64,000 nucleotides of DNA from a virus, in the IMG/VR virus record IMGVR_UViG_3300027895_000005, positions 38,139-102,138 of that record; one strand, written 5' to 3'. Of the stretch, positions 41,743 to 44,541 are shown piece by piece (positions within the stretch are counted from its first letter, which is position 1; each line of letters starts with the position of its first letter). The translations under genes and the position numbers were made by a program. Below the pieces are notes generated by a model that saw nothing but the letters and a program-made list of their open reading frames with translations, ran no database searches and was not told where the DNA came from.

Positions 41743-44541
41743 ATGGCGACCGAGATCGAGGATGTGCTTTCCGGACGGGAACCCTGGACTGTGCAGCAGG
41801 GGGATTGCCGATTGGTTCTGCCGACGCTGCCGGATGGGTGTGTGGACGCCGTGGTCACTGATGGACCCTACGAACTCGGTTTCATGTCCAAGGATTGGGA
41901 TGCTTCCGGCGTCTCGTTCAATCCGGCGACGTGGCGGGCAATCCACCGCGTCCTTCGCCCCGGCGGTTATCTCGTTGCGATGGGCGGTTCACGGACCTTC
42001 CACCGAATGGCCTGCGCCGTCGAGGATGGCGGGTTCCAGATTCGTGATTGCCTCATGTGGTTATATGCGTGCCTAAGCAACGACACAGAACTACTGACCT
42101 CGAAGGGGTGGGTTCATTACAGTAGAATCACGACTGACAATCTCGCACTCGCATACAATCCGACTTCGGATTCGTTCCGGTGGGAGAAGGTTGAGGAAGT
42201 GATGACCTATGACTACTGCGATACCGCCTACCGAATTCAATCGGATCACACGGACCAAATCGTCTCCAGAAATCATCGCTGCCTTGTTAAACGAGGCGGA
42301 AGCTACGCATTCGTCTACGCGGAGGCATGCCAACAGCAAGAGGGTGTACCCGTTCTGGAAGACGTGCAAGGTCTGCTCGACGCCCTACCAGTGCCAGACC
42401 AGAGAGCAGGCGGCGCGCAACAAGACTTGCTCGCCAGGATGCGCCGCGAAGGCGATCGAGGGGCAGCGTGCGAGGAAGCCAGTAGTGGAGCGGTCGGGAT
42501 TGAAGATGGTGGCGTGCGCCGTCTGCGGCAAGGTATTGTGGCGGTTCCGCTCCCGGCTGGCGAGGACGAAGAAGCCGACGTGTTCACGGCAGTGCAACGG
42601 CAAACTGCGCGGTGCGGCTTTAACTCCGCACGCCAGCAAGGGACGTGCGAACTGGACGGCCGCGTCAGTGGCGTACACCAAGAAGATGACGGGGGCAAAC
42701 AATCCGGCGTGGAAGGGTGGGGTAACGTACGTCAAGCGCAAAGGCAACTACGTCGGTCACAAGTATGTCCGCTGCCCGGCGGAGTTCCTTCCGATGGCGA
42801 GGAGGGACGGCTACGTTGCCGAGCATCGGTTGATCGTGGCGCGCATCATCGGTCGGCTACTGACCAGGCTGGAAACGGTTCATCACGAGAACCACAACCC
42901 GCTCGACAACCGACCCGAGAACCTGATGCTGTTTGCCTCCAACAGCGACCACAAACTGTACGAGGCTCACGGCACGCCAGAGCCGATCTGGCGATGGTAA
43001 CGCCCGTTTGGCATCAGGGCGTCGTCTGGTGCATCCGCGTGCCCTCTGGTGCGTTTGTCGCTCGCCGCAACGGCAAAGTATTCGTCACCGGAAACAGCGG
43101 CTTCCCGAAAAGTGACGGGTGCCTCAAACCGGCCTACGAACCCATTATCCTCGCGAGAAAGCCGGGGAAAAAGGTGTTGCCGTTGGGTATCGACGAGTGC
43201 AGGATTAAAGCAGATGACGGCGTTCCCCTCTTCGGCAACGGCAGAAGGGAAGCCGTCAACGCCTACGCAAACGGTATGGGGTGCGACGGCAGGACCGGGG
43301 AGATTTCGCACGCGGGCCGCTGGCCCGCCAACGTCGTTCATGACGGGTCCGACGAGGTGATGGAGGGGTTCCCGGAAGCGGGGAGTACCTTGAAACATTC
43401 CTACCCAGATCAGGACTCCGGAACAGGCGGGGAAAGCGGGAAGTACGGTCGCTTCGGCGCAAAGACCGTTACGACTCATGCCGACTCTGGCAGCGCCGCC
43501 CGCTTCTTTGCGATGTTTCCAGAGGACGAAAGCGGGTGGATGTTTCGCCGCGCCAAGGCTATAATGGAGGTATGGAATCAACAACATGCCTTCATTGTGG
43601 AAAAGAGTTCGTCCCTGCCAAGCGAAGCCGCCGCTTTTGCTCTCGCTCATGCAGTAGTAGCGGCCAGCCAAGAGGGCAGGCGGCTAAACGGTGTGCGGGG
43701 ACTTTCTACGAACGTAACGCCCAGCGAATTAAGGACGCTCGCAGAGAGCGCTATCGCGGCGACCCTGAGTATCGAAAGAAGGTTCTTGCCCGAACAGCAG
43801 CAAGGAAAGCCCATCCCATCCAGCAACTATGTGAAGTGTGCGGTGGGCCGGCACAGCGGCACCACGACGATTACGATAAGCCACTGGAAATCCGATGGCT
43901 CTGCGGATCGTGTCACATTGGACATCACGTTGTCGAGCGAGGTTCCTGGGGTTCCGGGCTCTCCGTCCCAGAGGTTTAACTACTGCGCCAAGGCATCCAA
44001 AGAGGAACGTAACGAAGGGTTGCACAATCTCACTCCCGCGAGGGGCGTTCGGACTAACGCCCCTCGCGGGAGTGAGACGGAGAAGACTGTGCCTCGCCGC
44101 AACAATCATCCCACGGTCAAGCCGGTCGCGCTCATGTCATGGCTTGTCCGTCTCGTCTGTCCAGCGGGCGGTCTGGTTCTTGATCCCTTCGCCGGGTCAG
44201 GTTCGACCGGGGTCGCTTGCCGGATGGAGGGGCGGCGCTTCATAGGAGTTGAGCAGGAGGAAGAATACGCCGACCTCGCCCGCCGCCGCATCGCCTCGGT
44301 TAACCCTCTGGCCGACTCCTGCGAGCGCGCCGCCGCAAAGGCCCCCGAACGCGACCTGTTCACCGCGCTACCCGACTCAGCCCCCATCGCCACCGACCCG
44401 GAGCACCCGCCCGAAGCGCCCACCCCCGCCGACGTCGCCCCGGCGCCCGGTGAGGTTCCACCGAAGCGAGCGGCGAAGGGGCGAGGAAAGAAGTCGGCGA
44501 CGGTGGAGGGTGGTGAGGAGTTGTTCGAGAAGGAGGGATAA
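41743..44541 (+). CDS. N4/N6 DNA methyltransferase (beta class) with an intein and a second in-frame insertion
   Basis: VTDGPY, SGFPKS, SAARFF..YCAKAS, HPTVKP, VLDPFAGSGST; RBS gggagggg. Confidence 0.9.
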   Translation: MATEIEDVLSGREPWTVQQGDCRLVLPTLPDGCVDAVVTDGPYELGFMSKDWDASGVSFNPATWRAIHRVLRPGGYLVAMGGSRTFHRMACAVEDGGFQIRDCLMWLYACLSNDTELLTSKGWVHYSRITTDNLALAYNPTSDSFRWEKVEEVMTYDYCDTAYRIQSDHTDQIVSRNHRCLVKRGGSYAFVYAEACQQQEGVPVLEDVQGLLDALPVPDQRAGGAQQDLLARMRREGDRGAACEEASSGAVGIEDGGVRRLRQGIVAVPLPAGEDEEADVFTAVQRQTARCGFNSARQQGTCELDGRVSGVHQEDDGGKQSGVEGWGNVRQAQRQLRRSQVCPLPGGVPSDGEEGRLRCRASVDRGAHHRSATDQAGNGSSREPQPARQPTREPDAVCLQQRPQTVRGSRHARADLAMVTPVWHQGVVWCIRVPSGAFVARRNGKVFVTGNSGFPKSDGCLKPAYEPIILARKPGKKVLPLGIDECRIKADDGVPLFGNGRREAVNAYANGMGCDGRTGEISHAGRWPANVVHDGSDEVMEGFPEAGSTLKHSYPDQDSGTGGESGKYGRFGAKTVTTHADSGSAARFFAMFPEDESGWMFRRAKAIMEVWNQQHAFIVEKSSSLPSEAAAFALAHAVVAASQEGRRLNGVRGLSTNVTPSELRTLAESAIAATLSIERRFLPEQQQGKPIPSSNYVKCAVGRHSGTTTITISHWKSDGSADRVTLDITLSSEVPGVPGSPSQRFNYCAKASKEERNEGLHNLTPARGVRTNAPRGSETEKTVPRRNNHPTVKPVALMSWLVRLVCPAGGLVLDPFAGSGSTGVACRMEGRRFIGVEQEEEYADLARRRIASVNPLADSCERAAAKAPERDLFTALPDSAPIATDPEHPPEAPTPADVAPAPGEVPPKRAAKGRGKKSATVEGGEELFEKEG
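42070..43095 (+). mobile_element. Intein (342 aa)
   Basis: WLYA|CLSNDTELLT; block B VSRNH; block F VWCIRVP; VTGN|S; removal restores WLYASGFPKS. Confidence 0.9.
42209..43000 (+). CDS. HNH endonuclease overprinted (+1 frame) inside the intein; start uncertain
   Basis: Two Cys4 motifs, GANNPAWKGG, EHRLIV..VHHENHNPLDNRPENL. Confidence 0.8.
   Translation: MTTAIPPTEFNRITRTKSSPEIIAALLNEAEATHSSTRRHANSKRVYPFWKTCKVCSTPYQCQTREQAARNKTCSPGCAAKAIEGQRARKPVVERSGLKMVACAVCGKVLWRFRSRLARTKKPTCSRQCNGKLRGAALTPHASKGRANWTAASVAYTKKMTGANNPAWKGGVTYVKRKGNYVGHKYVRCPAEFLPMARRDGYVAEHRLIVARIIGRLLTRLETVHHENHNPLDNRPENLMLFASNSDHKLYEAHGTPEPIWRW
43510..43980 (+). mobile_element. 157-codon in-frame insertion in MTase carrying an alternate-frame HNH gene
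   Basis: Splits SAARFF|YCAKAS; no intein termini. Confidence 0.75.
43572..43979 (+). CDS. HNH endonuclease overprinted (-1 frame) in MTase
   Basis: CLHC..[37 protein letters not shown] at 43560 ends 7 nt before ATG. Confidence 0.8.
   Translation: [135 protein letters not shown]

Follow-up and report, generated by a model that had tools for sequence, protein, structure and literature searches.

In the usual view, a homing endonuclease gene spares the gene in which it resides only with the help of an intron or an intein. Free-standing homing endonuclease genes can also lie in a host coding sequence without an intron, as mobE does in nrdA of Aeromonas phage Aeh1, and there the host is split into two polypeptides. 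In the methylases of mycobacteriophages, a 202-codon stop-free insertion of unknown nature and with a disjunct distribution has been described as the "ShiLan domain" (Gosselin et al. 2023, PMC9957025). This domain hides an HNH endonuclease of 195 amino acids in the third frame, whose start lies 18 bp inside the insert and whose end is TAAC; neither an intron nor an intein was detectable, the host-frame fold was of low confidence, and read-through of the host frame combined with leaderless translation of the HNH was proposed (Arsenault, Gosselin & Gogarten 2025, PMC11855218). The second published case of a hidden HNH is gp60 of Pacc40, a protein in which a methylase domain comes after a helicase domain, and where the insert lies in the N-terminal half (PMC11855218). 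Here we describe an element in a 64,000-nucleotide stretch of viral DNA (the window; positions 38,139 to 102,138 of IMG/VR record IMGVR_UViG_3300027895_000005, which is 105 kb in total), where an HNH open reading frame (ORF) is embedded out of frame in a DNA methylase gene. The element is most likely a ShiLan-type, read-through and non-spliced homing HNH cassette.

The methylase ORF that hosts the element has a listed start codon GTG at 41704 and an alternative ATG at 41743. The order of motif IV (41860), HPTVKP (44107) and FAGSGST (near 44190), together with the match to PF01555 (2.1e-29), is that of a beta-class enzyme, with the caveat that motif IV reads DGPY. Two foreign segments are present within the ORF, an intein (42070-43095) and the insertion with the HNH gene (43510-43980). 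The insertion is situated about 40 residues upstream of motif X, within the family-specific region that separates motif VIII from motif X, and methylases of the Protein Data Bank (PDB) align with the window methylase only in the N- and C-terminal conserved parts. In an AlphaFold2 (AF2) model of the full protein, the core blocks of the methylase have predicted local distance difference test (pLDDT) scores of 81-97, and residues 603-759, which make up the insert, have scores of 38-60. A reading of the DNA made earlier from its letters alone (the sequence-only reading) had assigned the insert to the variable region of a beta-class methyltransferase, and this assignment holds; that the insert is tolerated there as a loop, as was also proposed, may be the case, the pLDDT of these residues being only 38-60.

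The insertion is a discrete one. Its two flanks, SAARFF and YCAKAS, adjoin as GSAARFFYCAKAS in more than 60 insert-less homologs from IMG/VR, and this contiguous sequence is the consensus of the empty site. Methylases that bear the insert are 507-582 amino acids long, or 698-830 amino acids with a second insert, versus 350-537 amino acids for the insert-less ones. The 157 codons between the flanks are free of stops in the methylase frame, just as the sequence-only reading had it, and the third sense frame of the insert contains 8 stops and the antisense frames 2-7. Outside the HNH ORF the insert has only 62 nt at its 5' side and 1 nt at its 3' side, so that the stop codon of the HNH (TAA, 43977-43979) belongs to the insert's final four bases, TAAC. 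The GC content at third codon positions was ambiguous (0.54 for the HNH frame of the insert and 0.64 for the methylase frame) and was not used as evidence.

The zinc-finger HNH that had been recognized in the -1 frame is a complete ORF at the 3' edge of the insert, starting with the ATG at 43572. Its product matches PHROG 2340 ("endonuclease", 6e-14) and PHROG 1271 ("HNH endonuclease", 1e-6) and begins with a four-cysteine ribbon, CxxC...CxxxC. For the statistics on frames and conservation, 12 distinct embedded elements were used. An alignment of the 12 elements from IMG/VR reveals 32 invariant columns in the HNH, which include Cys-6, Cys-9, Cys-23, Cys-27, Cys-87, Cys-90, His-97, His-98, Cys-111, Cys-114, His-115, and His-119. 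The AF2 model of the HNH, built with 12 homologs, has a mean pLDDT of 80.7 and contains a beta-beta-alpha element at residues 95-123, where strands 95-98 and 107-110 and helix 112-123 have pLDDT values above 83. This core, the invariant histidines and cysteines, and the PHROG matches place the protein among the HNH (His-Me finger) endonucleases, with Pfam silent and Foldseek weak. Its relatives in cultured phages are partial matches of 30-47% identity to free-standing endonucleases, and the GenBank collection of cultured phages contains no record with the embedded arrangement of this HNH.

A scan of IMG/VR with the HNH protein yielded 17 contigs with copies at 54-67% identity. In 17 of 17, the HNH separates the N-terminal half of a homologous methylase from its C-terminal half, at the RFF/Y.AKAS site. 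The frame offset (HNH minus methylase, modulo 3) is 2 in every one of them, and the methylase frame is open through the whole insert. Three more copies with the same architecture and an open host frame were found in GTDB genomes, namely a metagenome-assembled genome (MAG) of the Phycisphaeraceae, the prophage of Paraburkholderia phenazinium LMG 2247 and a Ramlibacter MAG, which brings the related copies to 20. A shorter and more distant HNH (35% identity), which does not have the central helical segment, is present in a Gemmatimonas MAG (L168, 986-1519) at an RFF/RYSSKAS site, in the same relative frame and again with an open host frame. The hosts of the embedded copies belong to the Planctomycetota, the Burkholderiales and the Gemmatimonadota. 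In all 12 distinct elements, the stop codon of the HNH is found between -11 and +13 nt from the 3' junction.

The genomes of the published cases, ShiLan (L163, JN020143) and Pacc40, were compared with the window directly. The resemblance to ShiLan gp65 is close. Both are phage DNA methylases with a stop-free insertion and an HNH ORF in the third (-1) frame, and neither has a detectable signature of an intron or intein. In both, moreover, the fold of the host frame is predicted with low confidence, the element occurs disjunctly among methylases, a flanking host motif is repeated in short form at the peptide level, and the end is TAAC. The two methylases are homologous (blastp 4e-26) and carry an intein at the identical site (WLYx/C...GN/SGFPKS), with homologous splicing blocks that are near-identical at the C terminus. 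In contrast, the ShiLan domain is inserted within KPxYEP..ARKP and the window element at RFF/YCAKAS. The sizes differ (157 codons with an HNH of 135 amino acids in the window, 202 codons with an HNH of 195 amino acids in ShiLan), as do the start codons of the HNH (ATG in the window, GTG in ShiLan), and the HNH of the window insert (HNH2) aligns with that of ShiLan only over the 36-residue N-terminal zinc ribbon (1e-4). The phages are those of Planctomycetota, Proteobacteria and Gemmatimonadota here and mycobacteriophages in the case of ShiLan. With an alignment confined to the ribbon and a different site, the window insert is not a member of the ShiLan sequence family, and yet it has all five features of the ShiLan-type hidden HNH as a kind (PMC11855218). 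The window element thus belongs to the published kind and lies outside the published sequence families, being a new lineage at a new site in new hosts. The sequence-only reading had seen in it a third class of non-disruptive homing element that keeps the host frame open. The comparative evidence supports the arrangement itself, but the class was already published in 2023-2025 as the ShiLan domain and its hidden HNH (PMC9957025, PMC11855218).

ShiLan gp65 (JN020143, 4786-9513) ends about 40 residues after RFFPVFRYEAKAP and does not contain the C-terminal motifs HPTxKP and FxGxG, and the downstream genes gp67 and gp70 are annotated as DNA methylase. The gp65 host gene may itself be split just downstream of the site equivalent to RFF/YCAKAS. 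Pacc40 gp60 resembles the window gene in that an out-of-frame, nuclease-like (HNH/AP2-like) ORF lies in a stop-free insertion of a methylase-containing gene, but the hidden ORF has no sequence similarity to HNH2. The free-standing phage HNHs of PHROG 2340 and PHROG 1271 are homologous nucleases (6e-14 and 1e-6); unlike the window HNH they have no host ORF around them, and stops abound in their +1 frame (about 5 per 135 codons). Homing endonucleases of introns and inteins, such as I-HmuI and the LAGLIDADG inteins, share with the window element a selfish nuclease gene in a conserved motif, a patchy occurrence and a course of invasion, decay and loss. They differ in that the window insert has no detectable splicing element, and the host would be kept by read-through of an open frame. 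In contrast to genes interrupted by elements of the mobE type, the methylase ORF of the window stays continuous.

The free-standing relatives provide a natural control for the open host frame. In 54 of them from IMG/VR, the equivalent frame contains 271 stops in 7215 codons, or about 5.07 per 135 codons, and it is open in a single relative (1 of 54) versus all of the distinct embedded elements (12 of 12). Because the free-standing relatives have stops where the embedded copies are open, selection must hold the host frame open, and the methylase frame is kept stop-free in the embedded elements. With GC contents between 0.43 and 0.59 among the elements and 1-18 stops in each of their other four frames, the open frame is neither a compositional effect nor a chance effect of GC content. 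When synonymous codons were permuted within each HNH, the probability of an open host frame was 0.02-0.58 per element and about 1e-9 jointly for the 12 distinct elements. This null is conservative, since the constraint has already acted on the codon usage.

Further evidence on translation of the host frame comes from the two ends of the insert. A 62-nt leader is shared by five elements (the window, L002, L004, L006, and L009), and only the methylase frame can code there. Over leader positions 22-60, the pairwise differences per site at methylase codon positions 1, 2, and 3 are 0.31, 0.19, and 0.55, respectively, and the leader peptide ..LLxxRAKxI[LM].. is conserved in the five elements. The excess at third positions is suggestive of a translated frame under purifying selection, with the caveats that the sample is small and that the same bases also carry the -10-like hexamer. 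At the 3' end, RFxY directly precedes (C)AKAS in every element with differing codons, and the overlapping C-terminal tail of the HNH is unconserved; in three elements, the stop of the HNH falls within codons for Y-S or P-K that belong to the host motif. Since RFxY is kept as a peptide while its codons differ, the insert restores, as peptide, the host motif that it interrupts.

Whether the methylase-frame reading is in addition a selected, functional polypeptide, which would be true dual coding, seems doubtful to us. The hints in this direction are the conserved leader helix EELLxxRAKxIL, the rebuilt RFxY strand and an excess of synonymous conservation inside the HNH, where codon identity at identical residues is 0.53 versus 0.38 in the flanking methylase exon. 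In such a case, the element could have acquired an adaptor module that keeps the extra 157 residues folded clear of the methylase, or even modulates it.

To trace the inheritance of the element, a tree was made of 44 methylases, 11 of them carriers, with the insert columns removed. The carriers are scattered on this tree, with 10 state changes, a number equal to the mean of shuffled data, and a single clade of carriers is rejected by the approximately unbiased (AU) test (p = 0.0035). The mean pairwise identity is 0.58 for the HNHs and 0.50 for the methylases, and the two are uncorrelated (R2 = 0.02, Mantel p = 0.30). By all of these measures, the distribution is disjunct. Several homologs contain in-frame remnants between RFF and (R)xxY.AKAS, of 34 extra residues beginning with KQCE.. 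in L090 (3026-4363), 22 residues in L129 (2894-4273), 9 residues in L144 (2864-4426), and 2-3 residues in L098 (3125-4342). The remnants of L090 and L129 resemble the 5' leader peptides of intact elements. These are evidently alleles that have lost the HNH by in-frame deletions, with the methylase ORF kept intact. Together, the scattered carriers and the remnants fit the cycle of invasion, decay and loss of homing elements, and the HNH is a putative homing endonuclease, given that its site is fixed, its distribution patchy and remnants occur.

Each of the embedded elements keeps the start codon of the HNH, 4-10 residues ahead of the first cysteine. In the window, the TATAAT that the sequence-only reading had pointed out ahead of the ATG is indeed present, six bases away, and it is followed by GGAGG at 43566-43570, just 1 nt from the ATG. 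Five of the 12 distinct elements, representing four leader types, have an exact TATAAT no more than 60 nt upstream of the HNH start, where 0-0.017 would be expected from the background per stretch of this kind. The hexamer stops 6-8 nt short of the ATG in the window, L002, and L014, the geometry of a leaderless mRNA; in L007 and L010, the TATAAT precedes a leader whose Shine-Dalgarno sequence is well spaced. Other elements have a Shine-Dalgarno sequence alone or a degenerate hexamer. An internal promoter for the HNH is plausible, and a leaderless HNH mRNA in the window is possible. The claim of a leaderless promoter gains from the recurrence and spacing of the hexamer but not from the sequence further upstream, as is described below.

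The following life cycle would account for these observations. A gene for a zinc-ribbon HNH of the free-standing type would have inserted into GSAARFF/YCAKAS of a phage beta-class methyltransferase. As the insert is constrained to be stop-free in the host frame, the methylase would be translated straight through, carrying 157 extra residues in its family-specific region, and the last codons of the insert would restore the host motif (RFxY-CAKAS), presumably leaving an active enzyme. Translation of the HNH would start at its own ATG in the -1 frame and probably yield little protein, and in the window the gene may be transcribed from the TATAAT as a near-leaderless mRNA. On co-infection, or when a phage meets a prophage, the HNH would cut insert-less alleles at or near the empty site, and repair of the cut would copy the cassette in, which amounts to homing.

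The main alternatives concern splicing. Phage group I introns commonly carry HNH ORFs, and the 471-nt segment might be an intron that splices itself, of group I or group II, or an unrecognized ribozyme, with the HNH as its passenger and the open frame as an incidental feature; splicing by a ribozyme that goes unrecognized would speak against read-through. In the region 41000-45500, a search of Rfam at E ≤ 10 gave no intron (group I/II) or other RNA family, the sole matches being chance, miRNA-like ones to a downstream hairpin, and at E ≤ 1 there was no intron family in 10 homologous loci either. There is no match to RF00028, the insert ends in ...TTTAAC, with a C where a group I intron is expected to have a G, and a ribozyme core would have to fit into the 62 nt upstream and the 1 nt downstream of the ORF. 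Neither the strong selection against host-frame stops nor the codon-position pattern of the leader would be explained by an intron, and the in-frame remnants at the site leave the methylase ORF intact. We consider an intron very improbable. Still less likely is an atypical intein, which protein splicing would remove after its translation in the methylase frame, even if the insert is stop-free in the host frame and sits in a conserved motif of a gene that already hosts a canonical intein. With Pfam, the insert peptide in the methylase frame matches nothing at E ≤ 0.1, including any Hint or intein domain, and the AF2 model has low-confidence helices and strands in this region and no Hint fold. 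The first residue of the insert is Ala in the window and Ala, Phe, Lys, Gln, Ser, Met, or Tyr among its relatives. The last residue is variable too (Asn, His, Glu, Lys, Ile, Ala, Phe, or Leu), with the insert ending in RFN in the window and, among others, in RFK, RFE, or RLH elsewhere. The +1 residue is Tyr, and the Cys after it is replaced by Val, Ala, Ser, or Ile in several relatives. The absence of Hint termini and of an obvious intron in the sequence-only reading is thereby borne out; judged from its sequence, the insert has no detectable self-splicing intron or intein, and it is probably not spliced in vivo. Ribosomal bypassing between the duplicated RF codons was considered as well and rejected, as it would need no open frame. 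Known ribosomal bypasses hop about 50 nt.

A rival of a different kind accepts read-through but takes the cassette to be no longer mobile, that is, old, vertically inherited and repeatedly lost, with an HNH that is domesticated or decaying and a methylase-frame peptide that is neutral baggage. The HNH copies are mutually just 47-67% identical, so that no recent transfers are visible, the remnants indicate that loss is frequent, and the zinc ligands are altered in some copies (for example CRPHH and CREHH in L165 and L166). This is improbable, although less so than splicing. The catalytic and zinc residues of the HNH are invariant in the 12 IMG/VR elements and every copy has kept its start codon, a single origin in one methylase clade is rejected by the AU test, the distances of the HNHs and the methylases are uncorrelated, and the hosts range over the Planctomycetota, the Burkholderiales and the Gemmatimonadota.

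Some observations do weigh against a mobile, read-through nuclease cassette. None of the Pfam HNH models matches the ORF at E ≤ 0.1, and the PHROGs were needed for its recognition. Its neighbors in the PDB by sequence or fold, the HNH domain of Cas5-HNH and the HNH of phage GVE2, are weak ones (E 0.03-0.5; Foldseek about 0.3). There is no convincing -35 element near the TATAAT of the window, where a promoter scan made no call. The permutation null has low power in some relatives and is uninformative for the bacterial copies, with probabilities of an open frame of 0.65-0.99 in L165-L167, because the risky codons have already been lost from those genes. Repeated loss, rather than repeated gain, could account for part of the patchy distribution. 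Finally, the DGPY in place of DPPY makes the activity of the window methylase uncertain. In the 44 homologs, Asp-53 and Pro-55 of motif IV are invariant, and Pro-54 and Tyr-56 are kept in at least 90%; the window has Gly-54, and its methylase may be weakened or have an altered activity.

Table 1. Positions of the insertion, the hidden HNH gene and the landmarks of the host methylase in the window
Feature	Position	Strand	Description	Basis
Host methylase ORF	41704..44541	+	945 codons, N6_N4 / beta-class DNA methyltransferase	Pfam PF01555, 2.1e-29
Catalytic motif IV	41860..41871	+	DGPY in place of usual DPPY	alignment of 44 homologs
Intein	42070..43095	+	Cys1 ... Asn/Ser; context only, distinct from HNH insert	site and splicing blocks as in ShiLan gp65 intein
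5' flank of insertion site	43492..43509	+	SAARFF, conserved host motif	R600 and F602 invariant
Insertion	43510..43980	+	471 nt, 157 stop-free codons, methylase residues (codons) 603-759	methylase frame translation
Leader	43510..43571	+	62 nt, 5' of HNH start; methylase frame reads AMFPEDESGWMFRRAKAIME, with conserved RAKxI[LM] segment	leader comparison
TATAAT	43560..43565	+	-10-like hexamer, six bases between it and HNH ATG	sequence inspection
HNH endonuclease ORF	43572..43979	+	135 amino acids and TAA, -1 frame relative to methylase	PHROG 2340, 6e-14
HNH catalytic and zinc motif	43857..43928	+	methylase-frame reading is TTTITISHWKSDGSA...	homolog alignment
Last three insert codons	43972..43980	+	R-F-N, peptide-level repeat of host RFF, rebuild RFxYCAKAS	element alignment
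3' flank of insertion site	43981..43998	+	YCAKAS	Y760 and K763 invariant
Motif X through motif I	44107..44208	+	HPTVKP through DPFAGSGST	invariant H802-P807, D827, G831, G833, T835

The intein of the window methylase contains an out-of-frame ORF of its own, of the HNH_3 type and in the +1 frame (42209-43000), which is related to the hidden HNH of the ShiLan domain (blastp 8e-15). A ShiLan-type HNH appears to have replaced or colonized the endonuclease region of this intein. A second hidden HNH, also of the HNH_3 type and related to HNH1 of the window, is found in L121 (2549-4402; alternative-frame ORF at nt 410-973 of the gene), as well as in L003 and L007, where it lies in a different and more N-terminal stop-free insertion. 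In L003 and L007, both types of hidden HNH are within one continuous ORF. The methylase coding sequence of the window also has an inverted repeat at 44029-44076, with perfectly matching arms of 21 bp around a 6-nt loop, which is 49 nt downstream of the insertion site and encodes ..LTPARGVRTNAPRGSE.. in a protein segment that is variable in homologs. The repeat is unique in the window, with 2 matches (its own arms) versus 0.01 expected.

What the present analysis adds to the published cases are statistics on the selection of the host frame with the free-standing control, the remnant alleles and the phylogenetic breadth. For genome annotation, the arrangement means that gene callers will report the long methylase ORF alone and miss the nuclease, and that such inserts inflate the lengths and domain maps given for methylases in phage databases. 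The prophage of P. phenazinium LMG 2247 offers a cultivable system for testing splicing. If dual coding were true, it would point to a general design rule for nuclease genes that colonize host ORFs without splicing. Besides introns and inteins, the hidden HNH represents a third solution for sparing the host gene, in which that gene is read through the element in another frame. As an independent HNH lineage uses it at another site in this methylase family, in phages and prophages from three or more bacterial phyla, this solution is no curiosity of mycobacteriophages.

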